This document shows positions 1,989 through 18,708 of a stretch of 64,000 nucleotides of DNA, in pieces. The notes beneath the pieces are model-generated. The model made no database searches and was not told the origin of the DNA. It saw nothing but the letters and a program-made list of their open reading frames with translations. How positions within the stretch are numbered: position 1 is the first letter of the stretch; each line of letters opens with the position of its first letter. The DNA comes from Candidatus Heimdallarchaeota archaeon. GTDB lineage: Archaea; Asgardarchaeota; Heimdallarchaeia; Heimdallarchaeales; Heimdallarchaeaceae. The translations under genes and the position numbers were made by a program. The stretch lies in assembly GCA_030603365.1 (NCBI GenBank), contig JAUVXV010000012.1:1-64000 (forward strand), in the 5' to 3' direction.

Positions 1989-2072
1989 ACAATTCACCTG
2001 CTTTTTTGAAATGCCTTTTTAAAAGGTTTTATTGTCTAATTTTATCTGTAGTAACAATTGTTAATATAATTC

Positions 2073-2111
2073 TGAAAGAAAAGTGAAAAAATATGGAAAA
2101 ATATGGCAAAA
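2073..2111 (-). promoter_or_regulatory. Phased direct-repeat motif, copy A, upstream of the WH2-like repeat gene
   Basis: Minus strand reads TTTTGCCATATTTTTCCATATTTTTTCACTTTTCTTTCA and aligns without gaps to copies B-D; about 85 bp before the ATG at 1988. Confidence 0.75.
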
Positions 2112-2150
2112 ACAAAAGTATCAGATTAGAATCTATTAAATTGAACATTT

Positions 2151-3107
2151 TTATATTTTATACTCTTGAATTTCCTTATAATTACCATCTGGTATCTTGA
2201 AAGTTTGTATAATGAAATCTATCAATTCTTCCTTTGAATTGGATTCTCTTTTCTCAAGATGTTCATATATGATTTCAATCAACCTCTGTGCTTCTATATT
2301 AGAATCATTTGGTTCTGTAATCAGAGAAATTACAATTTCACCTCTTTCTTGAAAAGCAATTTGTCCATAATTCGAGACAACACTAGCAACTCTCTCATCT
2401 CTTAAAGAGTTGTTTTTATCATTTAGTACTTCAGATAACAAATCCAGAACTGAAATAAGATTATTTCTTACATCAGAGAAATCTAAGAACAATTTGATGT
2501 TACCAAAAATGGACGATATAATTAAACCTTTAGGAGATATCGTTTGTCCTACAGTGATTTCTTGCATTTTTCTAGTAAACCATCCCATTGCATTATCAAC
2601 ATTCATTGCTGTTTTAACGCTAATTTCAAAAATCTGAAAACTTATTTTTGGAAAATTACTGAGTTTTTGTAAATCTAGTACTTCAATAATCTCATCAAGC
2701 TCCATAGAAACTAAATCAGCTTTATTTGCGAGGAAAGCTAAAGCAATTCTGCGATCTACCTCTAAGTTATTAATGAGATACCAAAACCATTCTCTACCCT
2801 CTTCAGTTCGTTTTCTATTAGAAGCATCAAAAATAAAGAGAATGCCATAGCTATTAGCGGCATAGTTCAACCAAAATTGTCTTCTTAAGGTTTGATGGCC
2901 CCCCACGTCAAATAACTTTAGGAGACTATCACCAGCTCTATAGGTTTCAAAGTTTACTCCAATTGTTGGTGAAGTGTTATCTACCCATTTACCTGTAGCT
3001 AACCTTAATGCTAAGCATGTTTTACCTGCTTCATCTAATCCTAGTAAAGTAACTGGAATTCCTTTCTTACTGAAACTTAAACTTGTCATTTTCTCAACCT
3101 TTTTCAT
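2151..3107 (-). CDS. Arf/Sar-like small GTPase (His-type switch II) with C-terminal longin/roadblock-like domain
   Basis: G1 GLDEAGKT, G2 PTIG, G3 DVGGH, G4 NKAD, G5 SVK, plus a ~130-aa alpha/beta tail. Confidence 0.9.
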   Translation of the reverse strand: MKKVEKMTSLSFSKKGIPVTLLGLDEAGKTCLALRLATGKWVDNTSPTIGVNFETYRAGDSLLKLFDVGGHQTLRRQFWLNYAANSYGILFIFDASNRKRTEEGREWFWYLINNLEVDRRIALAFLANKADLVSMELDEIIEVLDLQKLSNFPKISFQIFEISVKTAMNVDNAMGWFTRKMQEITVGQTISPKGLIISSIFGNIKLFLDFSDVRNNLISVLDLLSEVLNDKNNSLRDERVASVVSNYGQIAFQERGEIVISLITEPNDSNIEAQRLIEIIYEHLEKRESNSKEELIDFIIQTFKIPDGNYKEIQEYKI

Positions 3108-3136
3108 TTTATTATCTTTTTCTATTTCCTTAATCC

Positions 3137-4453
3137 TTAATCGATAAATACGAGGTCTCTAAATTGTGAGAGTTCTTCTCTATTCATTCTATTTGGAAAC
3201 TCAAAATTACTCATCAAATTCTCAAAACTCTTTTCTATTTTCTTATTGGGTAAAAGAAATTCTATCTTTCTGTCGGGTAATATCACAGCAATAAGATAAT
3301 ACTGTCTTCCCTTCATTCGATGATCAAGTGGGATATCATCTTTCCCAAAGAAAGCATAAATGATAGTCCTATAATTTTCAAGTTTTGGTGCGGGAATGGG
3401 ACCAAAAACGCCAACTGGTTGTGAGTTTCCTTGTGCAATACTTGTATAGCACATGGTAGAAAAGTATTCAGAAGCAATGCTAATGCTGCGTAAATCCTCT
3501 CTAATCAATTCTCCTCCAAATGAAGCAAATCGGAAAATAGCTACTCCAATATTGTCTTCATTAGCCATTGATATTCTAAGATTTTTTATTTCTTCCTGTT
3601 GCTTGAGATAGTAACTGGCATCTTCTAAGGTAAGTATGAAGGTTTTTCTATCATCATCAGTTACTTGAGTTATAGCTACATGACATGGAAATTCTATCCC
3701 ATCTTTCCTTCGGATTTGATAGATTAATCCATCCATCACATTCCCTTCAAGTATAATAAATGTGAAATCTGGAAAGATGTTGTTGATAAGTGTTGAAGAT
3801 TCCTGTAATTCCTGTAAACTATATCCAATCATCATTTCAAACATTTGATTAGCAAAAAGAAACACTCCTTTTGAATCAATTGAGGCAATTCCTGAGGCGA
3901 TACTTTGAAGGATCTTTGTTGATTCCTTAGATTCAAGATTCCTCTTCTTTTGATGATTAGCATTCTTCAAACTAATATGGATCACTGGTAGAATTTCTAG
4001 AACTTCATCAATTATTTGTTGCGCATCAAAAGATGCTTGAATAAGAGGAATTTCTATCATGAATTCTAAAGAGCTCCTTAGAACATATGGGCAAAAGATT
4101 GTTGGTATGTTTTTTCTTAATGATATGGACCTTTTTCTTAAAGCAGGCTTAGTAATTGAATAGATTCTAGAAATGAGTTTTTCATCCAAAATAGCAATAG
4201 TTTCAAGTTTTTCAGAATTTCTATTATAAGCAGTTACTCTATCTCCTATTTTATTAGTAAAATAGAAAGAACAATTTTCACAATTGTAAATATCAAGCAA
4301 TAAATTGAATACTTTTTCTACTACATCAGAAATTGATGATACTTCTGCTAAGGTTTGAAAGAAGCTAAAGAATGATCTAGTTTTGTTGTCAGGGCTCTGG
4401 AAGTTTTTTTCCTTGTATTTGGTAATTTGAGCTGAGTTCGTCAAACTTATCAC
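3137..4453 (-). CDS. GAF-like + PAS sensor protein with an uncharacterised C-terminal domain, possibly longin/uDENN-like
   Basis: PAS signature ILQSIASGIASIDSKGVFLFANQMFEMMIGYS...RRKDGIEFPC; GAF-like N-terminus; tail with GVFGPIPAP...IYAF...DHR; no kinase or HTH domain. Confidence 0.75.
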   Translation of the reverse strand: MISLTNSAQITKYKEKNFQSPDNKTRSFFSFFQTLAEVSSISDVVEKVFNLLLDIYNCENCSFYFTNKIGDRVTAYNRNSEKLETIAILDEKLISRIYSITKPALRKRSISLRKNIPTIFCPYVLRSSLEFMIEIPLIQASFDAQQIIDEVLEILPVIHISLKNANHQKKRNLESKESTKILQSIASGIASIDSKGVFLFANQMFEMMIGYSLQELQESSTLINNIFPDFTFIILEGNVMDGLIYQIRRKDGIEFPCHVAITQVTDDDRKTFILTLEDASYYLKQQEEIKNLRISMANEDNIGVAIFRFASFGGELIREDLRSISIASEYFSTMCYTSIAQGNSQPVGVFGPIPAPKLENYRTIIYAFFGKDDIPLDHRMKGRQYYLIAVILPDRKIEFLLPNKKIEKSFENLMSNFEFPNRMNREELSQFRDLVFID

Positions 4454-4474
4454 TCTTTACATTCATATTATGAT

Positions 4475-5374
4475 CTAGAATTCCCACTTAACTGAGTCAA
4501 TTAGATTCTTTATTGTATCCTTATCTATTTTTAATTCTCTCTTCATTCGGGACAGAACTTCGAAAAACAATGTCAATCCAGTTTCTCTAGCTATGCTTTG
4601 TTCATCATCCTGATTAACATATAAGATTGCATAGTAATCCCCCTTCTTAAGCATATGAACCACATAATTGTCAATTTTTATAGATGGTAAGGAGTCAATC
4701 ATTTTCAGAGAGTGAGCTCGGAATACTTGCTTTACTTCTTGAATTTCAGTTTTCTTTTCATTTTCGATGAATATCTCATCAAATATAGGTTCAAGTCTGT
4801 CATCCAAAATCTCAAATGCATATACATTCACTGAAGGTTTAGCTTCCATTCTTCTCCTGATAGATTGAGATAACCATGTCCAACATTCCTTGATATTTTT
4901 TCCAGTTACGCTTGATGTTTCAAAGATTCTAAAACTTTTCAGCGGTGATTCACTGAATTTTGTAAGATCAAGTTCTTCAACTATATCTTCTAGACTGAGT
5001 GAGTCTTCTAGGTCAGATTTATTCGCAAAGAAAGCAAAGTTTGCGTCTTTAGGAATCCATTCTTCTACTTTCCACAACCACTCTTTCACCAGTTTCATTC
5101 TATTCTTATCAGTTCTGTCAAATACAAATATACAGCCTTGGCAAGAAGAAACGAAATTTTCCCAGAAAGTTGACCTGAAGGATTGTTGTCCTCCTAAATC
5201 TACAACATCAAAACGATAATCATTTTCTTTAATAATAGAAAGGTCATATCCAACAGTTGGTTGGAAATCATCTTTGAATTCTCCAGTTTTTAAACGATGA
5301 ATGAAGGTAGTTTTCCCAGCTTTTTCTAATCCAGTGATTGCAATCAATGGATGAATTTTCTTTTTAATACTCAT
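4475..5374 (-). CDS. Arf-like small GTPase (Gln-type switch II) with C-terminal longin-like domain
   Basis: GLEKAGKT, PTVG, DLGGQ, NKSD, ETSS; tail VYAFEILDD...YVVHMLKKGDYYAILYV. Confidence 0.9.
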   Translation of the reverse strand: MSIKKKIHPLIAITGLEKAGKTTFIHRLKTGEFKDDFQPTVGYDLSIIKENDYRFDVVDLGGQQSFRSTFWENFVSSCQGCIFVFDRTDKNRMKLVKEWLWKVEEWIPKDANFAFFANKSDLEDSLSLEDIVEELDLTKFSESPLKSFRIFETSSVTGKNIKECWTWLSQSIRRRMEAKPSVNVYAFEILDDRLEPIFDEIFIENEKKTEIQEVKQVFRAHSLKMIDSLPSIKIDNYVVHMLKKGDYYAILYVNQDDEQSIARETGLTLFFEVLSRMKRELKIDKDTIKNLIDSVKWEF

Positions 5375-5417
5375 ACATATCCCAATTAATTTACCGTAAA
5401 ATACATTAATTCTATAT

Positions 5418-5456
5418 TGAAAGAAAAGTGAAAAAACATGGAAAAATAGGGAAAAG
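5418..5456 (-). promoter_or_regulatory. Phased direct-repeat motif, copy B, in the divergent gap between the GTPase unit and the PAS-wHTH regulator
   Basis: Minus strand CTTTTCCCTATTTTTCCATGTTTTTTCACTTTTCTTTCA, about 44 bp before the ATG at 5374. Confidence 0.8.
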
Positions 5457-5536
5457 ACTTTTTTATCATAAAAACCACTGTTATAGTTAGTGCTTTGTAA
5501 TCACATAAGGGTTTAAACTTTATCGTTTTATAGCTA

Positions 5537-8500
5537 TTGAAGAAGGGGATAATGATGTGCATAGGTGTTATAAGCTCTCAATTACTGCTAGATACAGCAG
5601 ATTTTATTTATGTTGCAATTGATGTTGATCAGAAAGTCACTCTCATTAATAGAAAGGGATGTGAGATTCTTGGTTATTCAGAGGATGAAATTATTGGTAA
5701 GAACTGGTTCGATAATTTTCTTCCTAAAGAAGTTGCTGGGGATTTCAAATCTAATTTTGTTAGACGAATTACTGAAAACAAAGAGACCAAACTAGCTAAG
5801 AGCTATACTCTATTGACAAAAGAAGGAGAGGAGAGATTAATTTCTTGGCACAGCACTTTTTTCAATGATGAAGAGGGAAATTTAGTTGGTGCTTTATGTT
5901 CAGGAGAGGATATCACAGATTATACTAGAACGAAACAGATGCTCGAAGCAAATGAAAGAAAATTTAGCAAATGTTTTAATCATTCTAATGATGGCTATGC
6001 ATTAAGAAAGTTAGATGGAACTATTTTGGACGCAAATCTCAAATTTCTCGAATTATTTGGTTACAAGAAAGATGAAGTGATTTCTAAGAATATTAAAGAA
6101 ATCGAATTACTAGAAGATTCTAAAGAATTAAGTCGATTGATAAAAGAAATTGGTAAAGAAGGATTTCTTCAAGTGGAAACAACAGCAAGGAAAAAGGATG
6201 GAACAACATTCCCCATTGAACTAAACGGAATCACATTTGATTTAGAGGGAGAGAAAGTAGTCTTTAACATCATTCGAGATTTAACAGAAAGTAGGAAGAG
6301 AGAAACTGTTTTAAGGGAAAGTGAAGAGAGATTTCGAGGATTGTTCGAAACTGCTGCAATTGGTATGGCAATAGTAGATCTGGAGGGGAAGCCAGTCGCT
6401 AGTAATGAAGCTTTACAAAAAATGCTAGGATATACAAATGAGGAACTATGTAGTATGACTTTTACTGAGTTTACTCATCCTGACGATGCTACAGTTGATA
6501 TGGATCTTTATATGGAGTTAATTGCAGGTAAAAGGAAGTACTATCAGATAGAGAAAAGATACATTACAAAGAATAAAAAACTCATCTGGGGAAATCTAAC
6601 AGCTACTCTAATTCGAGATGAAAATGGTGAGCCACTTTACGGTATTGGTATGGTAGAAGAAATAACTCAGCTGAAAGAAACTATAATAGCTTTAGCAGAA
6701 AGTGAATCAAAATATAGGACATTACTCGAAAGTCTACCTCAGAAAATTTTCCATAAGGATGCTGATCTGAAATATGTTTCATGCAATGAGAATTTAGCTA
6801 ATGATCTAAATATTAAACCGTCTGAGATAAAGGGAAAAACTGATTTTGATTTCTTTACAAGTGAACTTGCAGAGAAATACAGAGCTGAAGATAAGAGAAT
6901 AATGAAAGAAAGAAAAGTTGAAACAATAGAAGAAAAAACCGTAAAAAATGGAAAGGAATATACAAGTGAAACTACTAAAATTCCATTATATGATGAAAAA
7001 GGAGAAAGTGTAGGAGTCATTGGAATTTATTATGATATTTCAGAAAGGGTAAAAACTGAACGAGAATTACAAGAGAGCGAGGAAAAATATCGCAGTTTTG
7101 TACAGAATTTCCAAGGAATTGCATTCAGGAGAACATTGGATTTCAAACCCATTTTCTTCCATGGAGCTGTAGAAGAAATCACTGGCTACACAGAGGAAGA
7201 GTTTGTATCTACCTCACTTACTTGGGATAAACTCATTCATCCAGAGGATATTGTAAAGATAAAAGAGCTATTAGAGAAATTAAGTAATGTTCCAGATTTA
7301 TTTAATGAAGGAGAATATAGAATTATCCATAAGAATGGAGAGATTAAATGGATTAATGAGATAGTTAGGAATATTTGTGATGAGAAAGGAAAACCAATAT
7401 ATGTACAGGGGTGTATACATGATCATACTGAAAGAAAAGTTATAGAAGAGAAAATTAAGGAAAACGAGGAAAAGTTTCGTACTCTTTTTACTGAAATGAA
7501 GCAAGCTTACTCCTTATATGAAGCTATATATGATAAAAGAGGAGACATTGAAGATGCAATATTAATAGAAGCTAATCCAGAATATGAAAAAATAGTAAAC
7601 AAGAAGAGAGAGGAAATAATTGGTAAGAAAATATCAGAAATCTATCCTAACTTAAAGAAACAAGAGGTTAATCCAATAGCAATACTAGGAAGAACCGCAA
7701 TAACAGGAGAAACTGTAATATCAGAATACTATAACAAAGATGTTGGTAAATGGCTTTTAGCTAAATCTTTTTCTCCAATGAAAGATCATGCTGCAATATT
7801 ATTTGAGGATATCACAGAAAAACGTAAAATGGAGAAAGAATTAGAGAAAGAAAGAAAAGCAACACAACAATATTTAGACATTGTAAATATCATCCTAACT
7901 GTAATCGATGCAAATGAAAATGTCATATTAGTCAACAAAAAAGGATGCGAGCTTTTAGGCTATGAACACGAAGAGATAATTGGGAAAAATTGGTTTGAAA
8001 ATTATCTGCCAAAAAGAGTTCGAGAAGAAACAAAAGAAATTTATCAAGACTTATTAGCTGGTAAACTAACCCACTCTGAGTCCCATGAGAACCTCATTCT
8101 CACTAAAGATGGTGAAGAGAGACTAATAGCATGGGATAATACCTATATTAGGGATGAGGAAGGAACAATTGTTAGTACTTTAAGTTCTGGAAGAGACATA
8201 ACTGAGATGAATAAAGCTCAAAAAGAACTTAAAGAAAACGAAGAAAAATTCAGAAGTATCTTCAACCATTCTAATGACGGATATATTTTAAGATCAGTTG
8301 AAGGTGTAGTTTTAGAAGCAAATCCTAGATTTCTTGAGATATTTGGGTACGAATCTACTGAAGTCATTTCTACTAATATAAGGTTAATCAACACATATGA
8401 AACTGAGGAAGATCATATAAGTAGAAAGCAAGAAATCGATGAGAAAGGGTATGCTCAGTTTGAAACTTTTGCTACCAGAAAAGACGGTTCTATTTTCCCA

Positions 8501-10780
8501 ATGGAAGTAAATGCAATTAAATTATTGCTTAGTAATGAGGAAGTGGTCTTTGTAATTGTTAGAGACATTACTGAAAGGAAAAAAGCAGAAACAAAGATCA
8601 AATCTTCAGAAGCATTATACAAAGCACTTTTTGACAATACAGGAACTGCGATGATGCTAGCAGAAGAAGACTTTACCATAACACTAGTCAATGAACTATT
8701 TTTGGAAAAGTCAGGTTTATCACAAGAAGAATTGTTAGGGAAAAAGTGGACAGATTTTATTCAAAAAGCAGAAAAAGAAAATATAATTAAAGCTATTAAA
8801 AGGATGGTTACAGATTTTATCCCACCAATAATTTTTGAAACCTCGGAATTTTGGATACTTGGAGAAAATAAGACTTTACTGGTATCTATAGGCATTAATC
8901 CTGAAACGAGACAACACATAGCTTCGCTTATTGATATAACTGAAAAGAAGAAACTTGAAAAAGAACTCTCTACAAGTGAAGAAAAATATAGAGAGCTATT
9001 CAACAATGTTCCTATTGCTCTGAGTCAAACCAAACCTAGCGGTGAGATAGTAGAATGCAACTCTGCTTTCATCAATATTTTTGGATACAAAAATGCTGAA
9101 GAACTAAAAAAGGTCAATGTAGAGGAATTATACTTTGATCGAAGTGAACGAAAAGCAGTTCTAGCTGCAAAAGATAAAGCAGGATACTCTGAGTTTTTAC
9201 TTCAAAAGATGAAAAAGAAGGATGAAACCCCTATATGGGTGGAAATGAACTCAAAAATATCCTACGACGACAACCAAAATGTTTCACATTATGATACATA
9301 CTTGAAAGATGTAACAGATAAAAAAGAGATAGAAGAGAGGTTGAAGCAAAGCGAAGAAAAATTCAGAAGCATTTTCAACCATTCAGTTGACGGATATATG
9401 CTCCGTGATGAATATGGAATAATTCTGGAACATAACCCAATGTTACTGGAAATTTTTGGTTATGATGAAGAAGATCTAGATGGTATGGATATTACAAAAT
9501 TCGAAATGAAAGAAAATACTGAAGATTTTATGAAAATAAGAGATATGCTTGCTTCAAAAGGTCATGCTTTTCTTGAAACAAGATTCATGAAAAAGGATAA
9601 GACATGGATTTCAACAGCAGTTTCAGCAATTAAGTTTGATCTAGCTGGAAGGGATGTCGTCTTCTCAATATTAAGAGATATTTCAAAACGGAAAGAAACA
9701 GAAGAATTGTTGAAAACAAGCGAAGAAAGACTCAGAACTTTGTTTGAAAACATCCCCATTGCGATTTCAATAAATTCCTCAGAAGGTGAAAAAATAGATA
9801 TTAATCCGGCTTATTGTAAGACTTTTGGATATGCTAATAAAGAAGAATGCTTATCAAAACCTTCAACTGAGCGCTGGTTTAATCCCCGAGATCGTGAAAG
9901 GCTTTATGATTCATTACGCCAGAGGAATTTTGTTAATAATTTTGAAGCAAAACGTTTCAAAAATGATGGAAGTGAATTTTGGGGGTCAGTCTCAGCTGTA
10001 GCACATTTAGATGCTAAAGGAGAAAAAGTATATTTTATGTCAATAAGAGACATCACTACAGAAAAACAAAGAGAGGAAGATCTGAAAAAACAAACCTTGA
10101 GATATTATTTGAAAGAATCGCAATTATATCTATCTGAAGAAGAGCGACCATATATCTCAAAAGAAGCCTTTATTGATTTATTGAAAGTAGGGTATAATGG
10201 TTTAGTTCTTTCAAGATTACCTGAAACTGAATGGAAGAAAGATACAAAATATGAATTCGATTTCTTAAGATTAGCTGAAAAAGGGCATTTGAAAACTATC
10301 TCTTCCGATCTAAGCAAGATAGAACAACTTATAGAAGAACTACCCAACAAACATGTAATTGTTATTGATAGACTAGATTATCTCATTTCTAAGAATGGGT
10401 TTGAAACCACTCTGTTCTTTATCTTCAGATTAATGGACATTGCCTACCTTTCTAATCACATAATTATTGTATCACTTGATCCTGCAACTCTAAATGAAAA
10501 AGAAAGGAAATCAATGAGAAAGGAGATGCGAATAATTGAATCCGTAGCTGAAGCTTCATTACCTGAAGAACTAATCGAAATTCTGGATTTTGTTCATAGG
10601 AGGAACAATGCTGGATACAAACCTTCCTATACAGATATTGTTGAAACTTTCAAAATAAGTAGACCTACTGCAAGGAAACGAATAAAGGATTTAATTAACG
10701 ATGAGTTCATATTTGAATTAACAAAAGGAAGAAGCAAAGTTCTAGGAATAACAACAAAAGGAAAAGCTATTTTTGATTAA
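5537..10780 (+). CDS. One-component regulator: 12 PAS/PAC domains + DUF835 + C-terminal winged HTH
   Basis: Twelve PAS units ending in DIT-like motifs; DUF835-like GLVLSR...IVIDRLDYLISKNGFE...SLDPATL; LexA-like wHTH ILDFV...PSYTDIVETFKISRPTARKRIKDL...GRSK. Exact start codon uncertain. Confidence 0.9.
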   Translation: MKKGIMMCIGVISSQLLLDTADFIYVAIDVDQKVTLINRKGCEILGYSEDEIIGKNWFDNFLPKEVAGDFKSNFVRRITENKETKLAKSYTLLTKEGEERLISWHSTFFNDEEGNLVGALCSGEDITDYTRTKQMLEANERKFSKCFNHSNDGYALRKLDGTILDANLKFLELFGYKKDEVISKNIKEIELLEDSKELSRLIKEIGKEGFLQVETTARKKDGTTFPIELNGITFDLEGEKVVFNIIRDLTESRKRETVLRESEERFRGLFETAAIGMAIVDLEGKPVASNEALQKMLGYTNEELCSMTFTEFTHPDDATVDMDLYMELIAGKRKYYQIEKRYITKNKKLIWGNLTATLIRDENGEPLYGIGMVEEITQLKETIIALAESESKYRTLLESLPQKIFHKDADLKYVSCNENLANDLNIKPSEIKGKTDFDFFTSELAEKYRAEDKRIMKERKVETIEEKTVKNGKEYTSETTKIPLYDEKGESVGVIGIYYDISERVKTERELQESEEKYRSFVQNFQGIAFRRTLDFKPIFFHGAVEEITGYTEEEFVSTSLTWDKLIHPEDIVKIKELLEKLSNVPDLFNEGEYRIIHKNGEIKWINEIVRNICDEKGKPIYVQGCIHDHTERKVIEEKIKENEEKFRTLFTEMKQAYSLYEAIYDKRGDIEDAILIEANPEYEKIVNKKREEIIGKKISEIYPNLKKQEVNPIAILGRTAITGETVISEYYNKDVGKWLLAKSFSPMKDHAAILFEDITEKRKMEKELEKERKATQQYLDIVNIILTVIDANENVILVNKKGCELLGYEHEEIIGKNWFENYLPKRVREETKEIYQDLLAGKLTHSESHENLILTKDGEERLIAWDNTYIRDEEGTIVSTLSSGRDITEMNKAQKELKENEEKFRSIFNHSNDGYILRSVEGVVLEANPRFLEIFGYESTEVISTNIRLINTYETEEDHISRKQEIDEKGYAQFETFATRKDGSIFPMEVNAIKLLLSNEEVVFVIVRDITERKKAETKIKSSEALYKALFDNTGTAMMLAEEDFTITLVNELFLEKSGLSQEELLGKKWTDFIQKAEKENIIKAIKRMVTDFIPPIIFETSEFWILGENKTLLVSIGINPETRQHIASLIDITEKKKLEKELSTSEEKYRELFNNVPIALSQTKPSGEIVECNSAFINIFGYKNAEELKKVNVEELYFDRSERKAVLAAKDKAGYSEFLLQKMKKKDETPIWVEMNSKISYDDNQNVSHYDTYLKDVTDKKEIEERLKQSEEKFRSIFNHSVDGYMLRDEYGIILEHNPMLLEIFGYDEEDLDGMDITKFEMKENTEDFMKIRDMLASKGHAFLETRFMKKDKTWISTAVSAIKFDLAGRDVVFSILRDISKRKETEELLKTSEERLRTLFENIPIAISINSSEGEKIDINPAYCKTFGYANKEECLSKPSTERWFNPRDRERLYDSLRQRNFVNNFEAKRFKNDGSEFWGSVSAVAHLDAKGEKVYFMSIRDITTEKQREEDLKKQTLRYYLKESQLYLSEEERPYISKEAFIDLLKVGYNGLVLSRLPETEWKKDTKYEFDFLRLAEKGHLKTISSDLSKIEQLIEELPNKHVIVIDRLDYLISKNGFETTLFFIFRLMDIAYLSNHIIIVSLDPATLNEKERKSMRKEMRIIESVAEASLPEELIEILDFVHRRNNAGYKPSYTDIVETFKISRPTARKRIKDLINDEFIFELTKGRSKVLGITTKGKAIFD

Positions 10781-10783
10781 CTT

Positions 10784-10822
10784 CTTTTCCCTATTTTTCC
10801 ACATTTTATCATTTATATTTCT
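10784..10822 (+). promoter_or_regulatory. Phased direct-repeat motif, copy C, upstream of the hybrid kinase
   Basis: CTTTTCCCTATTTTTCCACATTTTATCATTTATATTTCT; first 18 nt identical to copy B. It may also act as a T-rich terminator. Confidence 0.65.
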
Positions 10823-10907
10823 AAATTCAGTTATAAAGATAAGGGGTTGGTAAACTAAAACGAATATCTGATAAGATTAAAATCACTTTCAAAGGATTGG
10901 GATCAAA

Positions 10908-13900
10908 TTGCCTACTAAAACAGAAAATAAGAATGAAACTGAGACGAGTTCCAATGTATTATCCGATTTTTATGGAAGGTTTGATGACTTAGGAGAAGAC
11001 CTTATGAAACTATCTTCTCAAGAGCATATTTGTACTATTTATCGAAAAGATGAAGACAAGATAGATTCTATTATGGAATTCCTTAAAACAGGCATAGTAA
11101 AAAACGAGAGAAGTGTAATTATAGTTGACAAAAAATCAAAAGAAGATATTCTAAAAAAGATGAAGTCTATAGAAGATATTAAGAATCTTCTCAATACTTC
11201 AGCTATAGTGTTCGTAGGTTCAGAAGATATTTATGGTAACAAATCTGATTTTAATCTAGCTAGAACCATTGAATCAATTGAACCTTATTTGGAAGTTCCA
11301 CAAGAAGACAACTTCAATGGTTTAAGGATAATTGTTGAAATTTTACCTCTTAAAAACAAAGACACAACTGTGAATATGAGTTTGGAATTTCATTCAAGTA
11401 TCGACAAACTCATTTCAAACAGAAATATTAATTTTTTCTGTTTATACAACGAATATAGATTCGAATCCAAAACGTTATTAGATGTTATTTTCTCGCACTC
11501 TAAGTTAATTTTTAATGGTTTTTTATGTGAAAATTCTTTTTCAATGGATCCTCAGCAGCTTCAATTAAAACTAGAAGATAGGTTAGATGACGCACTCTAC
11601 AAAAAAACTGTCTATGAGATTGTTCAAGGTGAGGTAACTAAACAAAAGAGAGTAAAAACAGATTATTACTTTCAAAAAGAAACTCTCAAAGGCATTAATG
11701 ATTCTGTCTTTATTTTAGATTTTGAAGGCAATATACTTGAAGTAAACGAAGCTGCATACACAACAAGAGGATATACAGAAGAAGAGATACTAAGTCTGAA
11801 TATTTTAGACATAATGAGCTCAGAAAACAAAGACTTATTTGATTCGAGGATCGAAGAACTAAAGGAAAAGAGGGAGATAACATTTGAAACTACTCATTAT
11901 TGTAAAAATGGAACAATATTAGATGTGGAGTTTAAAACTAAAATAATCAGTTATGATGATCAACAGTATATTTTAAGTGCTGGAAGAGATATAACAGAAA
12001 GAAAAATAGTTGAAAAAGAAGCAAAAACTAGCGAAGAAAAATACAGAAGTATCTTCAACAATGCCAATGATGCCATTTTTTTATTAGAAGAATGTGAGGA
12101 TGGTAGATTTAACAAAATCGTTGAAGCAAACAAACAAGCTGTAAAAATGTATGGCTATTCAAAAGAAGAATTATTTAAAATGAGCCCCAATGATTTTAAT
12201 GCTACTGGGTATGTTGAAACTGAAGAAACCTTAAATGAATTCTTAAAAGAAAGAAGAATAAGATTTGAAAGAACACACAAAACAAAAAATGGTAAAATAA
12301 TTAATGTTGAAATTAGTTCTCAGTTGTTTGAATTAGATGGAGAAACAGTTAGTCATGCAATGGTACAAGATATTACAGATAGAAAGAAGGCTCAAAGAGA
12401 ACTTAAAGACAGCGAAGAAAAATTCAGGATGATTTTTAATAGTGTTAATGATGCAGTGTATCTTTTTAGTATTGAAGGGAATCTGTTGCCATCCAATTTT
12501 ATTGAAATCAATGATGTTGCTTGCAAGATGCTAGGTCACACTAAAGATGAATTTAGAAAGATGTCTCCAATCGATTTAGCATCAAAGGGAAATAAACAAA
12601 GAATTTCAGAGGTTTTGAGTAAACTTACAAAGGCAGGAAACATTACTTTTGAAAGTACTCATATTACAAAAGAAGGAAAACATATCCCAGTAGAAATCAG
12701 TTCTCATACCTTCCAATATCATAACAATCAAATGGTGCTTTCAATCGTTAGAGATATTACCGAAAGGAAAAAGAGTGAAGAAAAATTAAGAAGGTTGAAC
12801 GAAGAACTAGAAGAAAAAGTTGTTCAGAGAACTTACCAAATGGAGACATTGTACAATATTATTAAGGAAATATCTGAAACCTTCGATTTAAATGAAGCAA
12901 TGAGAATTATCACAAAATATATTTCAAAATTGGTTGATTATGACATTATTTTTCAGCTGATTACCCAAGAGGAGTTAAATCACATTCATATAGAAGCGCC
13001 CAAAGGGGATAAGGGAGTAATTGATGATTTTATAAAAAACGTCAAAGAAGAATTTGCAGAACTAAATCCTGATGCTTTGAATAATCGCGATGCAACAACT
13101 ATTATAACTTCAGATAAAAAGACAATTCAAAACATATTGTCACACATATCCATACCGCTTATTGCTGAGGATAAAGTAGTTGGATATGTTGTAATAGGCT
13201 CAGAACAAAAGGATGCTTATATTGAAGAAGAGATCTGGTTCTTGTATAAAATCGCAGACAACATTTCTCATACTCTTCAAAGATTAAAAGTAATTCTAAC
13301 TGCAAAGGATGAATTAGAAACAGTTCTTAATCATACATCCGATAGCGTCATACTCATTAATAATAATGATTCGGTAGTGATGACCAACAAAGCTGGAGGT
13401 AGATTTTTAGAGTTGATTAATTGTTCAGAGACGGATGGTATAGATAATGAAATATTAAACCTTGAAGAGCTTAAAGGGATTGACAAAAAAGAATTATCTC
13501 TGTATGGTAGAACCTACTATGTTTCCATGAATCCAATTAAGACTGATTTTGTTCATGGTTGGCTTCTAATTATTCATGACATAACTGAAGAAAGAGAGCT
13601 GCAGAAGAAGATACTGCATCAAGAGAGATTAGCTACATTAGGAAAGATAACTGGTGGTATCGCTCATGATTTTAACAATATTCTTGCCACTATTATCGGT
13701 GCAGCTGATTTCTCTTTGATGAATGCTGATAATATTGAATCGAAAGAGTTTCTGAATTTAATAATCAGACAAAGCGAGAAGGGAGCATCATTGATAAGAC
13801 AGATGTTAGATTTTACTAGACAGGCAGTGATAAGACCAAAACCTATTTCTTTACTTAATTTTATAACAGAATTTTCTAGGGTAATTAGATCTTCCTTACC

Positions 13901-14753
13901 AGAAAATATCTCTCTCTCGGTTAACACTAAAGATTGGACAGTTTTCATGGACCAGGTACAATTGCAGCAAGTTTTTTTGAATCTTATATTCAATTCAAGA
14001 GATGCCATCAGTAAAGAAGGAAACATCAAAATCTTTATCGAAGAAATTGAGCATTCAAACATCATAGATTTCGAAGGAATGGAAATTGATAAAAGTCAGG
14101 ATTACATTCATTTCATGGTTGAAGACAATGGGGAAGGAATGAATAAACAAACAAAAAAGATGATCTTTGAACCCTTTTTCACAACAAAAGATCCAGGAAA
14201 AGGAAGTGGGTTAGGATTAGCACAGGTTTATGGTATTGTAAGGCAGTCAAATGGATATATCGATGTAGAAAGTGAAATGAAGTTAGGAACAAAAGTCCAT
14301 TTTTATATTCCAAAGTATGAGGGTTTAGTAGAAGAAGAGATTGTAGAAACAGCAAGATCAGGAGAAGGAAGAATTTTACTAGTTGAAGACGATGAAGACG
14401 TAAGAGAGATTACCAAAATAATGTTAGAGAACTACGGATATATAGTAGTTACTGCAGAAAACGGGAAAATAGCTCTAGATTTATATAACGATTCTTTTGA
14501 TGTAGTCTTAACAGACATTATTATGCCTGTTATGGGAGGAGAAAAACTGATTGAGAAGTTGTTAGAAATAGATCCACAAATAAAATGCTTAGCTATGACA
14601 GGATATTCAGATACGAATGTTCCAAAAGGTGTCAAAGTTCTAAATAAACCAATAACAAGTTCAAAACTAGTCAACTACATTCAAAACGAGCTTGTACAAG
14701 AAAATAGTCAAGAAAAGATAGTTCAGTATAAGAAAAGAGAGGATGGTGGTTAA
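10908..14753 (+). CDS. Hybrid sensor histidine kinase: MEDS-PAS3-GAF-PAS-HisKA-HATPase-REC
   Basis: MEDS (HICTIY...GLRII...CLYN); H-box GGIAHDFNN; N-box NLIFNSRDA; DNGEGM, FEPFFTTK, GSGLGL; receiver LLVEDD...TDIIMP...KP. Confidence 0.93.
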   Translation: MPTKTENKNETETSSNVLSDFYGRFDDLGEDLMKLSSQEHICTIYRKDEDKIDSIMEFLKTGIVKNERSVIIVDKKSKEDILKKMKSIEDIKNLLNTSAIVFVGSEDIYGNKSDFNLARTIESIEPYLEVPQEDNFNGLRIIVEILPLKNKDTTVNMSLEFHSSIDKLISNRNINFFCLYNEYRFESKTLLDVIFSHSKLIFNGFLCENSFSMDPQQLQLKLEDRLDDALYKKTVYEIVQGEVTKQKRVKTDYYFQKETLKGINDSVFILDFEGNILEVNEAAYTTRGYTEEEILSLNILDIMSSENKDLFDSRIEELKEKREITFETTHYCKNGTILDVEFKTKIISYDDQQYILSAGRDITERKIVEKEAKTSEEKYRSIFNNANDAIFLLEECEDGRFNKIVEANKQAVKMYGYSKEELFKMSPNDFNATGYVETEETLNEFLKERRIRFERTHKTKNGKIINVEISSQLFELDGETVSHAMVQDITDRKKAQRELKDSEEKFRMIFNSVNDAVYLFSIEGNLLPSNFIEINDVACKMLGHTKDEFRKMSPIDLASKGNKQRISEVLSKLTKAGNITFESTHITKEGKHIPVEISSHTFQYHNNQMVLSIVRDITERKKSEEKLRRLNEELEEKVVQRTYQMETLYNIIKEISETFDLNEAMRIITKYISKLVDYDIIFQLITQEELNHIHIEAPKGDKGVIDDFIKNVKEEFAELNPDALNNRDATTIITSDKKTIQNILSHISIPLIAEDKVVGYVVIGSEQKDAYIEEEIWFLYKIADNISHTLQRLKVILTAKDELETVLNHTSDSVILINNNDSVVMTNKAGGRFLELINCSETDGIDNEILNLEELKGIDKKELSLYGRTYYVSMNPIKTDFVHGWLLIIHDITEERELQKKILHQERLATLGKITGGIAHDFNNILATIIGAADFSLMNADNIESKEFLNLIIRQSEKGASLIRQMLDFTRQAVIRPKPISLLNFITEFSRVIRSSLPENISLSVNTKDWTVFMDQVQLQQVFLNLIFNSRDAISKEGNIKIFIEEIEHSNIIDFEGMEIDKSQDYIHFMVEDNGEGMNKQTKKMIFEPFFTTKDPGKGSGLGLAQVYGIVRQSNGYIDVESEMKLGTKVHFYIPKYEGLVEEEIVETARSGEGRILLVEDDEDVREITKIMLENYGYIVVTAENGKIALDLYNDSFDVVLTDIIMPVMGGEKLIEKLLEIDPQIKCLAMTGYSDTNVPKGVKVLNKPITSSKLVNYIQNELVQENSQEKIVQYKKREDGG

Positions 14754-15144
14754 AATCTGTTTTTGCAGAAAGAGTGAAAATCTTATTGTTAAATATAAAG
14801 AAAAGAAAAGAATTCTACTAGTAGAGGATGATGATATGTTACGTGAGATAACTGCATTAATTCTTAGAAAATTCCAATTTGACGTTCTTGAAGCTGTTAA
14901 TGGTTTCGATGCATTGCAATTGTTTGATGAGACTATTGATCTGGTCTTAACAGATATTGTCATGCCGAAAATGGATGGTATTGAACTAATTCTAGAGTTG
15001 CAAAAAAAGGATCCAGATCTGAAATGTATTGCGATAACAGGTTTTTCCAATGTAAATGTTCCAGAAGATATTGAGGTTCTTCAGAAACCAGTAGGGGGCA
15101 AAAAGCTTGCTACAATCTTAAATGAAAGACTAGCAGCAGCATAA
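14743..15144 (+). CDS. Stand-alone CheY-like response regulator
   Basis: RILLVEDD, TDIVMP, ITG and KP receiver motifs. The true start is probably downstream of 14743. Confidence 0.88.
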   Translation: MVVKICFCRKSENLIVKYKEKKRILLVEDDDMLREITALILRKFQFDVLEAVNGFDALQLFDETIDLVLTDIVMPKMDGIELILELQKKDPDLKCIAITGFSNVNVPEDIEVLQKPVGGKKLATILNERLAAA

Positions 15145-15175
15145 GAAATATCAATATAACAATGAGGTAGAAGAA

Positions 15176-15595
15176 ATGGTAGCCAAAGTATCACTAGATG
15201 ATTATGATTTCAAAAAACATAAACATAATGATAAAATAGCTCGAATCCTTCTAGTTGAAGATGATATAGAATTAAATTTAATTATTAAAATAATACTAGG
15301 AAGATTAGGATTTGAAGTCATATCTACTTCAGATGGTAGAACTGCACTGAATTTATATAATAAATCATATGATCTAGTCATTACAGACATTGTGATGCCT
15401 GAAATGGGAGGAGTAGAACTAATCCAAAGGTTAAGGGATCAAAATCCAGAATTAAGATGTATAGCAATTACTGGATACACAAATCAAGCAGTTCCTGAAG
15501 AAATACCTGTTTTGAATAAACCATTTTCAACCACATTACTATTACAATACATAAATGAAGTCTTGAATATTCAAACGACTATAGAAACTCAATAA
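15176..15595 (+). CDS. Stand-alone CheY-like response regulator
   Basis: RILLVEDD, TDIVMP, ITG, KPF; GAGGT SD upstream. Confidence 0.9.
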   Translation: MVAKVSLDDYDFKKHKHNDKIARILLVEDDIELNLIIKIILGRLGFEVISTSDGRTALNLYNKSYDLVITDIVMPEMGGVELIQRLRDQNPELRCIAITGYTNQAVPEEIPVLNKPFSTTLLLQYINEVLNIQTTIETQ

Positions 15596-15675
15596 ATGGA
15601 AATTATTGCATAATAGGTTGTCTTAATTTACTAGGTAGAGAAGATAAAAAATCTAATTGAAAATGGGGTTGAAGT

Positions 15676-17199
15676 ATGGTAAACCAAAAGAAAATAGATT
15701 ATGGAAATCAATTGTTTTCTATAAGTGAAGATATTTTCAACGAGATTAGTAAAAATATTCAAGTTGGTATTTCAATTGTAGATCATGGACATTATATCTT
15801 TATGAATAAAAAATTCAAAGAAATTTTCAGTATTACTGTTAAAGAAGAAAACAGGTCTTTCTCCATATTAGACTACATTGCACCTGAAGATGCTAACAGA
15901 ATTTACAAAATTATTGATTCATCACTTAAAACAAACCAAATGCCTACAGAACTTCAATTTTGGATTATTAGGGGAGATGGAGAAAGAAGATTCATAAACA
16001 ATAAATATACAGTCTTTAAGGGGGGAGAAAAAACTAATACTCACTTAATATTAACAATAGATTGCACTAAGCTAAAATTAACATATGATGCGTTAAGTAC
16101 GAGTGAAAAGAAACTTAGGGAATTGTTCAATAATGCGAATGATGCGATTTTCTTTTCAAGAATAAGAGGAGACGAATTTCTAAGTAATTTCATAGAAGTG
16201 AATGATTTCGCTTGTAATTTGCTAGAGTATACAAAAGAGGAATTACTTGAATTGAGTTCACTAGATATATCAGCTCCAGAAATGAAAGAAGCTAATAAAG
16301 AGATCATTCAACAAATTATAAGAGAAGAGCAAGGAACTTTTGAAACAATACTAATAAGCAAAACAGGGAAAGAAGTACCCGTTGAAATCAGGTCTAACTT
16401 TTTCAATCTAGAAGGGGAAGGAGTCATTTTTACAGTTGCTAGAGATTTAACTGAGCGAAGAAAAGCTGAAAATGAAATCAGGAATCTTAATGAATCATTG
16501 AAGATAATAAATAGCATTTTACGTCATGATTTAAACAATAACCTTTCCGTTATTAAAGGAGCAATTTCCGCTTATAATGATGTTAAAGAACATTCATTTC
16601 TGGAGATGACACTGAAAGCAACTCACAAAAGTTCTGAACTTATACAGAAGATGGGAGAATTAGAGGACGCGCTTATACAAAAGGAAAATCTAACAATACT
16701 AGATTCTGAAGATTTTCTTAATAGAATTATTTCAAGCTATTCACTCTTTAAAGTCACTTTTGAGATAGAAGGTAACGGTAGTTTTTATGTTGATGCAGCT
16801 TTTACCTCAGTAATCGATAATATAATCAATAATGCTATAAAACATGGTCAAGCTGATAAAATTAAAATTTCGATCAAATCTAGTAATGGATTTTGTACGA
16901 TTCAGATAGCTGATAATGGTTCTGGAATATTAGATGAACATAAGAATCATGTATTTGAGCGTAGTTTTAAATATGGTAAAACCGCTGGAACTGGTCTTGG
17001 GTTATATATTGTTAAGAAAAACTTGGAGCGGTATGGGGGCGAGATTACAGTCAAGGATAATTTTCCTAAGGGTACAATTTTTGAGATTAAATTGAAGAAT
17101 AGAGAAGAAAAAGGATTTAAATATAAGTATTTTCCATGTTTTTCCATGTTTTTTCACATCACTTTCAATATAGTATTATTATTTTATAGGGCATTATAA
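15676..17199 (+). CDS. PAS-PAS sensor histidine kinase
   Basis: Two PAS domains; H-box ILRHDLNN; NIINNAIKHG, DNGSGI, GTGLGL. The last ~30 codons run across regulatory motif D. Confidence 0.92.
   Translation: MVNQKKIDYGNQLFSISEDIFNEISKNIQVGISIVDHGHYIFMNKKFKEIFSITVKEENRSFSILDYIAPEDANRIYKIIDSSLKTNQMPTELQFWIIRGDGERRFINNKYTVFKGGEKTNTHLILTIDCTKLKLTYDALSTSEKKLRELFNNANDAIFFSRIRGDEFLSNFIEVNDFACNLLEYTKEELLELSSLDISAPEMKEANKEIIQQIIREEQGTFETILISKTGKEVPVEIRSNFFNLEGEGVIFTVARDLTERRKAENEIRNLNESLKIINSILRHDLNNNLSVIKGAISAYNDVKEHSFLEMTLKATHKSSELIQKMGELEDALIQKENLTILDSEDFLNRIISSYSLFKVTFEIEGNGSFYVDAAFTSVIDNIINNAIKHGQADKIKISIKSSNGFCTIQIADNGSGILDEHKNHVFERSFKYGKTAGTGLGLYIVKKNLERYGGEITVKDNFPKGTIFEIKLKNREEKGFKYKYFPCFSMFFHITFNIVLLFYRAL
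17129..17167 (+). promoter_or_regulatory. Phased direct-repeat motif, copy D, upstream of the pseudo-receiver/GTPase unit
   Basis: ATTTTCCATGTTTTTCCATGTTTTTTCACATCACTTTCA, followed by ATATAG exactly as in copy B. Confidence 0.8.
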
Positions 17200-17238: not shown

Positions 17239-17760
17239 TTGAAATCGAAAATCAAAGATACCAAAAAAGAAAGAGCAACTTCGAATAATAGCATAAAAAG
17301 TTATTTGGACCTAAATTCAGAAAAATCTAACTATAAAATAATAAAGCAATTAAATGAGTTTATAAAATCTGAACTTAAGTCATTAAGATTTCGAAACAGA
17401 AAAATAATCAGAAGTGTTCTAGTTGTTGCTGGAAAATTACAAACAAGATTTCTTTGCGATTTGATTATTAAACAATATGGTTTCTCAGTCTCCACTATTT
17501 CTAATGTAGATGAACTCTTAGATATAATTGCTAGCAATTACGTAGCAATTCTTTTTGATGAAACAGACTACAATTCGAGAGATTTGAAAATTATTGAAAT
17601 AATAAAAGTGACCAGTCCAGGAGTAAAACTATTGTCATTTTCAGCAAATCCAAAATTCAATCGTCAACAAAATATTTTTCCTTCTCATAAAATAGCTTCA
17701 AAAAATAGAGTAGTAAAAGGGAGAAGTGAATTGTTATCTGAGGTATCAACTACGTTATAG
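17239..17760 (+). CDS. Degenerate receiver-fold protein (pseudo-receiver) with basic N-terminal extension
   Basis: SVLVVAG...IIKQYGFSVST...AILFD...IKVTSPGVKLLSFS follows the receiver beta/alpha pattern; the acidic DD pair is missing. Confidence 0.55.
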   Translation: MKSKIKDTKKERATSNNSIKSYLDLNSEKSNYKIIKQLNEFIKSELKSLRFRNRKIIRSVLVVAGKLQTRFLCDLIIKQYGFSVSTISNVDELLDIIASNYVAILFDETDYNSRDLKIIEIIKVTSPGVKLLSFSANPKFNRQQNIFPSHKIASKNRVVKGRSELLSEVSTTL

Positions 17761-17792
17761 AAAAGGAAAATACTATTAATGAGAGTGCAAAG

Positions 17793-18695
17793 ATGGGAAC
17801 TAGAAAACAACCAGTTAATTTTGTGATACTAGGTTTAGAGAATGCAGGAAAAACCACTCTATTAAGAAATATCTCAGGCAAAGAATTTGCTGAGACTTTC
17901 ACCACCATTGGTATGAATATCGAGCAGTTAAGACACAAAGGACTGAATTTTCAAGCAATTGATATCGGAGGACAACTTCATTTTCGTGAAACACTGTGGC
18001 AATATTACACGACTTTAGCAAAAGGTGTTATTTTTGTATTTGATATTTTTGACAGGAAAAAATTCTTCGAAGCAAAACAATGGTTTGAATACATATCAGA
18101 AAGACTCGCCAAAAAAGCAGTTCTAATGTTTCTAGCTAACAAAGTAGATCTGAAAGATGAAGATGACACATATCTAACAACTGAAGAAATAATAACTATG
18201 TTTAAACTTGATAATGTCTCCAAATATCCTGAAAGATCCTTTAGAATATGGGAAACATCAGCTAAAACTGGTGAAAATGTAAATGATGCAATTTCATGGA
18301 TGTTCAATAAACTAGTGGAGTTTGTCAAAGAGGAGTCAAGAATCTCTTTTGTATTGATTTTAGATCAAAATAATAAAACCGTTTATAAGACATCTATTGC
18401 TGAAAAAACCGATGAATTTGAGAGAGTCATTAACAAAATCATCATTCAGATGAAAGTTCTTGGTGCAAATGAAAACATGATCTCAATACAAGATTATATC
18501 GCAAGTGTTAGAACAGAAAAAAATTACAGTGTAGTTGTTGGGGCTGAAAATGGAGTGTCCAAAGATGACCTTTCAACTGCAGCTCTATCTATAACTCAGC
18601 TAATAAAAAATAACTTTTATCCCCCTGAACAATTCAAAGAACAATTAGAAGAAGTTGTGAATATCGCTCTTCTTCAACAATTAAACAAGAAATAA
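17793..18695 (+). CDS. Arf-like small GTPase (Gln-type) with C-terminal longin-like domain
   Basis: GLENAGKT, TTIG, DIGGQ, NKVD, SAK; tail ISFVLILDQNNKTVY...YSVVVGAE...ITQLIKNNF. Confidence 0.92.
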   Translation: MGTRKQPVNFVILGLENAGKTTLLRNISGKEFAETFTTIGMNIEQLRHKGLNFQAIDIGGQLHFRETLWQYYTTLAKGVIFVFDIFDRKKFFEAKQWFEYISERLAKKAVLMFLANKVDLKDEDDTYLTTEEIITMFKLDNVSKYPERSFRIWETSAKTGENVNDAISWMFNKLVEFVKEESRISFVLILDQNNKTVYKTSIAEKTDEFERVINKIIIQMKVLGANENMISIQDYIASVRTEKNYSVVVGAENGVSKDDLSTAALSITQLIKNNFYPPEQFKEQLEEVVNIALLQQLNKK

Positions 18696-18708
18696 AGGTA
18701 TAGTTAAA

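Follow-up and report, generated by a model that had tools for sequence, protein, structure and literature searches.

In the Asgard archaeon Candidatus Heimdallarchaeota archaeon, four transcription units of a signalling island carry one and the same short DNA element on the upstream side of their promoters. The units lie within a stretch of 64,000 nucleotides (contig JAUVXV010000012.1 of assembly GCA_030603365.1, positions 1 to 64,000 of the forward strand), referred to here as the window, and the element is a 39-bp array of direct repeats spaced by one helical turn. Within the genome it is confined to this set of promoters, and relatives keep it at the orthologous ones, as befits a cis element that defines a regulon; it is probably a functional protein-binding site. 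Its most likely reader, as far as sequence can tell, is encoded between the second and the third array: a protein with a string of PAS domains, a DUF835 domain and a C-terminal winged helix-turn-helix (wHTH), which is the best candidate for the role. The composite reading, in which the arrays are upstream binding sites, the PAS-DUF835-wHTH protein is their predicted reader and activation would be the outcome, can be held with moderate confidence.

The units behind the arrays encode a TPR protein (array A), a GTPase-sensor-GTPase set (array B), a kinase block (array C) and a receiver-like (REC-like) protein with a GTPase pair (array D). The arrays are listed below, each scored with a 38-nt position weight matrix (PWM) that was built from 19 copies in seven genomes and holds 42 bits.

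Array A, 2073-2111, minus strand: TTTGCCATA-TTTTTCCATA-TTTTTTCAC-TTTTCTTTC, 53.9 bits; the stop codon of the GTPase gene 2151-3107 lies 40 bp upstream and the start of the TPR gene 76 bp downstream.
Array B, 5418-5456, minus strand: in the divergent gap between the GTPase gene 4475-5374 (minus strand) and the PAS-DUF835-wHTH gene (plus strand), 59.1 bits; the GTPase start is 44 bp away, the regulator ATG about 97 bp.
Array C, 10784-10822, plus strand: 3-5 nt past the stop codon of the PAS-DUF835-wHTH gene, 46.6 bits; 86 bp from the start of the MEDS-PAS-GAF-kinase-REC gene.
Array D, 17129-17167, plus strand: at or just past the end of the PAS-kinase gene, 54.0 bits; 72 bp from the REC-like gene that heads the second GTPase pair.

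An earlier note on this DNA, made from the sequence alone, had described four copies that align without gaps, and all four are recovered in their places. Written in the orientation of the downstream gene they are TTTGCCATATTTTTCCATATTTTTTCACTTTTCTTTC (A), TTTTCCCTATTTTTCCATGTTTTTTCACTTTTCTTTC (B), TTTTCCCTATTTTTCCACATTTTATCATTTATATTTC (C) and TTTTCCATGTTTTTCCATGTTTTTTCACATCACTTTC (D). Each comprises 3-4 head-to-tail units in which a run of four to six T is followed by C(C)AY(R). The first C behind each T-run stands at offsets 4, 14, 25 and 36, which reproduces the spacings of 10, 11 and 11 bp given in the note. The highest information in the PWM falls on the non-T positions (CC, CCAY, CAC), and these are conserved. 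At all four sites the strand of the array is that of the downstream gene, and the array ends 76, 44, 86 and 72 bp before the start codon at A, B, C and D, in agreement with the note's description of a motif that flips with its gene and lies 44-86 bp upstream of the start. The ATATAG-type flank said to be common to B and D is likewise present, since both run into CAATATAG. At B this TATA-like block (5412-5419, minus strand) directly follows the fourth unit, is conserved and aligns with CTATAAAAG in one relative (G007); at D (17166-17173, plus strand) it directly follows the array and is invariant in seven genomes.

The arrays stand alone in the genome. A 27-nt core, TTTTCCNTNTTTTTCCAYRTTTTNTCA, matches exactly four sites in the window at up to three mismatches, with 0 expected from 100 shuffles, and across the whole genome (3.65 Mb in 17 contigs, 33% GC) these four sites are the only ones at up to two mismatches. 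By the PWM the four arrays score 46.6-59.1 bits, and no other site in the genome exceeds 18.8 bits. The earlier note had seen no further copy in the window, and the genome-wide scan that it proposed agrees: neither gene ends nor random AT-rich sites commonly match as well.

Conservation among relatives

When 61 genomes of relatives were searched by the motif pattern, the motif turned up in seven further genomes, all of this genus, each time with all of a genome's matches on one contig and, wherever several copies were assembled, with an identical strand order. In four of them (G004, G006, G007 and G024) every match at up to two mismatches lies on the contig of the island. The contigs of the relatives carry the same island with the arrays at the same four syntenic positions and with a conserved distance from core to start codon, and gene order is identical in all genomes compared. 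Array B is always in the divergent gap; it is conserved in five genomes, in four of which the core lies 81 bp from the start codon. Array C is always 3-5 nt past the stop of the regulator gene, with the same placement in five genomes, and array D, conserved in seven genomes, is always ahead of the REC-like/GTPase unit. Array A is kept in G024 and degenerate in G007; G016 and G020 have a variant form of it, and it is lacking from G001 and from G004, whose gap measures only 40 bp.

In alignments of orthologous gaps no non-coding block is better conserved than the arrays: mean pairwise identity inside and outside the array is 0.92 and 0.60 at B, 0.89 and 0.72 at C, and 0.92 and 0.62 at D. Subtypes specific to one position are kept across species, such as CCACA...TCATTTATATTTCT at C, which indicates orthologous conservation and not recent copying between sites. 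The earlier proposal of a shared, gene-oriented, promoter-side element of four transcription units thus has comparative support.

In a second clade (G016, G020 and G022) the array has changed in concert. Units of the form TTTTTCTAT have replaced TTTTTCCAT without a shift in syntenic position; G016 has them at all four positions, G020 and G022 at B and C. The original motif has no match in these three genomes or in G014. Searched across the whole of G020, the variant has its three best matches (0-1 mismatch) at position C, ahead of an Arf-like GTPase pair that lies on another contig in an unrelated metabolic neighbourhood, and ahead of a 940-residue TPR protein on a third contig. The dispersed GTPase is a paralogue, 32% identical to that of the window. 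An array whose copies change together in one genome and which remains linked to the downstream genes behaves as expected of sites read by one trans-acting factor.

The concerted change bears on an explanation that needs no factor at all, namely that the phased T/A-tracts form curved DNA which boosts or insulates promoters, with oligo-T termination added. The T-tracts are indeed phased at 10-11 bp, A, C and D sit directly behind genes, and in this genome runs of five or more T are enriched past stop codons (42%, compared with 25% in the control; for at least three runs, 3.5% compared with 0.8%). But the non-T positions are the most informative and conserved, T-rich gene ends abound in the 3.65 Mb and yet just four arrays occur, the units were exchanged together in another clade, and the arrays are missing from G001, which has the same promoters. 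Curvature without a factor is on these grounds a rather improbable account.

The copies have even less chance of being purely intrinsic terminators of the upstream genes. Three runs of T5-6 lie on the sense strand right behind the stops at A, C and D, where the position behind the 3' end of a co-oriented gene is that of an intrinsic terminator, but B lacks a co-oriented upstream gene in five genomes. Array D in G018 has the same difficulty, since the GTPase pair and an unrelated molybdopterin oxidoreductase gene diverge from the gap that holds it. The copy dispersed in G020 likewise follows a gene that is unrelated or divergent. A common motif of 42 bits is, moreover, not expected of generic terminators. 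The argument of the earlier note that copy B, being in a divergent gap, cannot be just a terminator therefore extends to five genomes and, through G018, to D. A pure terminator was rejected on the divergent-gap placement and the common motif. From the enrichment of T-runs past stop codons, A, C and D would plausibly terminate the upstream genes too, and at these three sites a dual role as upstream site and oligo-T terminator is likely.

Beside array D, the open reading frame of the PAS-kinase (15676-17199) reads 26 codons through the array in this genome. Its orthologues end at a TAA just ahead of the array, which is out of frame here because of a 5-nt length difference near 17118-17125.

Least credible of all are recombination sites, replication-origin sites of the origin recognition box (ORB) type or relics of a mobile element. 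The orientation of the arrays is a mirror image (A and B minus, C and D plus) around a gene for an ATPase-like and winged-helix protein, and a Foldseek search with the two-domain tail of that protein lists ORC subunits. These matches are poor (TM 0.27, root-mean-square deviation 16-20 Å), there is no recombinase and no Orc1/Cdc6 among the island proteins, and no inversion variant occurs in nine genomes, whose gene order is the same throughout. Whole genes and 3-6 kb separate the copies, no unwinding element lies between them, and their orientation follows the downstream gene even for the dispersed units. Sites of these kinds were rejected on the lack of a recombinase and of inversion variants and on the poor ORC matches.

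The candidate reader and the promoters

The arrays flank the gene of the PAS-DUF835-wHTH protein, hereafter the regulator, in every genome that carries it. Its parts in the window are as follows.

Regulator gene, 5537-10780, plus strand: 1747 residues, about 11-12 PAS domains, DUF835 and a C-terminal winged helix.
Likely start codon, 5552, plus strand: ATG.
DUF835 domain, about 10124-10550, plus strand.
Winged helix, 10553-10777, plus strand.

DUF835 is recognised as PF05763 with 67 bits, above the Pfam cut-off, and the winged helix by a consistent set of sub-threshold wHTH matches. The protein is accordingly one of the family in which DUF835, an inactivated KaiC-like domain (iKaiC; Galperin et al., PMC5847659), is followed by a C-terminal winged helix. 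The tail of 218 residues is modelled by AlphaFold 2 (AF2) with a pLDDT of 84. By Foldseek, the model consists of a FlaH/ArlH-like fold of the KaiC/RecA type (TM 0.47 to a FlaH-like structure) and a MarR/SmtB-like winged helix, with DNA-bound MepR among the matches. Even close orthologues, which range from 984 to 2004 residues, differ widely in how many PAS domains they have.

Co-occurrence points to this protein. Among the genomes of the family, all nine that have the DUF835-wHTH gene have arrays. Orthologues of the tail that are 84-91% identical occur in exactly the genomes with B and C, and homologues that are 43-55% identical occur in G020, G022, G016 and G014; the tails of the three genomes with variant arrays (G016, G020 and G022) are 51-55% identical to that of the window. 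Three more distant genomes in which the sensor is present and the regulator absent (G025, G029 and G026) have no array. The clean case, from a search of the family with the 438-residue sensor of the island as probe, is G001, which is about as close to this genome as G004 and G007 are (sensor 65% identical). It keeps the TPR, GTPase, sensor and GTPase genes, the divergent gap and the divergent GTPase, and the GTPases that face each other across this gap are 85% and 60% identical to those of the window. Missing are the PAS-DUF835-wHTH gene, the kinase block and the array in either gap, and there is no match to the motif genome-wide. Since arrays are also kept in G024, where the kinase block has decayed, and in G016, which is without it, they track the regulator gene and neither the kinases nor the TPR protein.

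The proposed mechanism starts from the array as a set of protein-binding sites that would mark the upstream side of four promoters. The reader would be the one-component regulator of the island, with the PAS string as sensor, DUF835 as oligomerisation domain and a winged helix of the MarR/ArsR type. In an oligomer, several winged helices could line up along one face of the DNA on consecutive units. The likeliest action would be activation of weak promoters through recruitment of TBP and TFB, as by EarA, Ptr2 and TFB-RF1. Such a regulator may jointly switch on the two pairs of Arf-like GTPases, the PAS-longin-type sensor, the TPR protein and the phosphorelay block, and through array B it could also feed back on its own divergent promoter. 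The T-runs of A, C and D would probably end transcription of the upstream genes as well.

Activation is favoured by the promoters themselves. Archaeal activators typically bind repeated sites just upstream of a weak TFB recognition element (BRE) and TATA box and help to recruit TFB and TBP (PMC5512572). A basal promoter model derived from the 29 tRNA genes of this genome has a purine-rich BRE (C/A-R-AAA-G/T; RAAAG) followed by a TATA box of the type TTTAAAA, which starts about 30-50 nt ahead of the mature 5' end. The BRE/TATA PWM built on it gives tRNA promoters 7-13 bits and the island gaps at most 8.3 bits, mostly no more than 6, and it finds no strong match in these gaps. Weak or non-consensus BRE/TATA elements of this sort are the usual setting of archaeal upstream activating sites, and the arrays probably lie directly upstream of them, which makes activation the favoured, if inferred, mode of action. 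At B and D the position of the BRE after the array is taken by the fourth unit, the pyrimidine stretch CTTTC against the consensus RAAAG, with CAATATAG directly next to it; at B, CAATATAG is a candidate TATA box.

Several observations weigh against the regulator as reader and against the promoter architecture drawn here. (i) The recognition helix of the winged helix, ISRPTARKRI, is identical in the clades with CCAT and with CTAT units, which means that protein and DNA do not co-vary. (ii) A D copy is present but no regulator was detected in G011, G017 and G018, three genomes assembled in short contigs and 80-84% complete; being this fragmentary, they are not counted as a contradiction. (iii) The co-occurrence comes from a few related genomes with one clean natural deletion, that of G001. 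(iv) Winged helices of the MarR/ArsR type usually bind palindromes as dimers, not direct repeats. (v) Phased T-tracts would bend DNA on their own. (vi) The assignment of the TATA box is ambiguous: D has a better BRE/TATA-like match, AAAAATAATTATAG (8.3 bits), about 45 bp further downstream and about 23 nt ahead of the start codon.

The lack of co-variation leaves room for a true transcription-factor site with another reader, either the TPR protein behind copy A or a factor encoded elsewhere. A conserved segment of the TPR protein, LTFIDIAYARNTSVRxVRxIF, resembles a helix-turn-helix (HTH) of the GerE/sigma-70 region-4 type, and the protein has a weak match to HTH_Tnp_ISL3 in Pfam and weak ESM leads to GerE/HTH_23 clusters. 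The segment was not confirmed as an HTH by Pfam, by a profile search of the PDB, by the ESM Atlas, where the GerE/HTH_23 leads are sub-threshold (ESM 0.78), or by an AF2 model of the middle region (pLDDT 36). The genomes also speak against this protein: G001 has it (926 residues) and no array, G004 has it and no A copy, and in every genome the arrays flank the wHTH gene and not the TPR gene. Another reader is for these reasons unlikely, though less so than curvature without a factor. The HTH-like segment LTFIDIAYARNTSVRAVRNIF itself, in the conserved middle region of the TPR protein (390-1073, minus strand), is a possible DNA-binding part, and the statement of the earlier note that the regulator is the only evident DNA-binding protein in the island may be too strong. 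Its choice of the PAS-DUF835-wHTH protein as reader stands as that of the best candidate, given the flanking arrays, the co-occurrence and the loss in G001; the cooperative binding that it proposed is a prediction.

The signalling island and the wider family

Domain assignments along the window are from Pfam. The four units behind the arrays are arranged as follows.

Unit A, 3-1997, minus strand: the N-terminal 665 residues of a helix-repeat/HTH-like/TPR protein of about 910 residues, cut by the contig end.
Unit B, 2151-5374, minus strand: Arf-like GTPase 4475-5374, PAS sensor 3137-4453 and Arf-like GTPase 2151-3107.
Unit C, 10908-17199, plus strand: MEDS-PAS-GAF-HisKA-HATPase-REC kinase 10908-14753, two REC-only proteins and PAS-kinase 15676-17199.
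Unit D, 17239-19650, plus strand: REC-like protein 17239-17760 (173 residues) and Arf-like GTPases 17793-18695 and 18709-19650.

The PAS sensor 3137-4453 (438 residues) is of the PAS-longin type. The 173-residue protein is without a Pfam match and reads like a degenerate receiver domain. A hydrogenase cluster follows beyond unit D on the opposite strand. The gene content of the genome is that of an Asgard-type archaeon. The kinase block is optional among relatives, being degenerate in G024 and missing in G016 and G001.

The tail of the regulator belongs to a much wider set of proteins. A profile search with it returns 2474 cluster representatives at E <= 0.001, of which 395 reach E <= 1e-30. 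Among the 150 best matches listed the module is C-terminal, and the region that precedes it is about 10 to 2300 residues long. The 395 clusters and the C-terminal position of the module indicate a large, uncharacterised family of one-component regulators. In genus g14 of the same class, DUF835-wHTH genes occur in 17 of 22 genomes, and five of the 20 genes have two adjacent T4+CC units within 200 nt downstream, as do 0.9% of ordinary gene tails in genome G000; the pattern was set post hoc, the background is from another genome and the genomes are related, which makes this enrichment a lead and not a result. A genome-wide search of g14 with the pattern shared by the arrays was uninformative, the pattern being too low in complexity. 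At g14 loci (L198, L199, L201, L209, L213 and L214) the DUF835-wHTH genes often have phased arrays of the TTTTCC type behind them, sometimes directly ahead of a TATA-like run. The whole DUF835-wHTH family may read sites of the TTTTCC type.

A scan of metagenomes with a loosened motif gave unrelated termite-gut repeats and chance matches, and only one similar locus, L114, in an unrelated context. The repeats (L072-L190, for instance L163:4155-4448) form an abundant unrelated family (...GGCTGTACCATATTTTTCCACATTTTCTCATAAACGGCACGATTTTCGG...) that is sometimes in tandem on one contig. L114:6490-6560 (JFJP01028768.1) is a helically phased array of seven units (TTTTTCCTTA / TTTTTTCACTA / TTTTTTCAATA) on a contig of 32% GC with small open reading frames.

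Taken together, these features allow a broader reading, to be entertained only tentatively, in which the array would be the operator of an uncharacterised archaeal regulator family built of sensor, iKaiC/DUF835 and winged helix. Such a regulator would form oligomers through the KaiC-like domain and set its winged helices head-to-tail on phased units of the TTTTCC type, which in Heimdall-group Asgard archaea would place pairs of eukaryote-like Arf-family GTPases and a longin-type sensor under transcriptional control by the environment, sensed through the PAS string; the array would also double as a terminator-insulator between units. To our knowledge there is no experimental work on how Asgard archaea regulate their eukaryote-like small GTPases, and a literature search found no cis-regulatory motif or regulon for these archaea. 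If the reading is true, the arrays would delimit the first defined regulon for the 'eukaryotic signature' GTPases of Asgard archaea and the first predicted operator for the DUF835-wHTH proteins, a large family with at least 395 sequence clusters. The element, a named candidate reader whose 218-residue tail models well and a short list of targets would make the system testable in vitro without growing the organism.

Comparison with known systems

With archaeal oligo-T terminators the arrays share runs of at least five T on the sense strand shortly past the stop codon at A, C and D. Such terminators are without a common sequence of 42 bits, an orientation that follows the downstream gene and a placement in divergent gaps, whereas the island arrays have all three.

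Operators of the OmpR/PhoB type consist of direct repeats that are bound head-to-tail by winged-helix domains. The arrays resemble them in that their direct repeats are one helical turn apart, lie upstream of the promoter and have a winged-helix protein as candidate reader. In contrast, the REC proteins of the island are without an output domain, the only clear winged helix has a fold of the MarR/SmtB type and stands behind DUF835, and transcription is by an archaeal apparatus. Since the fusion of receiver and wHTH is absent, the island array is not an OmpR/PhoB operator.

In the Halobacterium bop regulon, Bat (GAF-PAS-HTH) is a cytoplasmic one-component regulator that is encoded beside its targets and acts on a few promoters through one common upstream activating sequence (UAS). 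The regulator of the island is likewise a PAS one-component protein encoded beside its candidate targets. Where Bat has HTH_10, the island protein has a MarR/ArsR-like winged helix behind iKaiC; motif and lineage also differ, and the UAS of Bat is not a phased direct-repeat array, as the island element is.

Similar in layout are the EarA sites of the Methanococcus maripaludis fla promoter, and with them those of Ptr2, TFB-RF1 and the Sulfolobus ara-box, in which several copies of a short consensus lie directly upstream of a non-consensus BRE/TATA. Activators of the EarA type compensate for weak binding of TFB and TBP (PMC5512572), and the island promoters are also weak by the genome's own tRNA-derived model. 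The island units differ in being 10-11 bp long, based on T-tracts and strictly helically phased, with one array type for four promoters; the sensor-iKaiC-wHTH protein proposed to read them is unrelated, and activation is the predicted outcome here. By kind the element is an archaeal array of upstream binding sites by which a small local regulon is defined, and it belongs to no described motif family.

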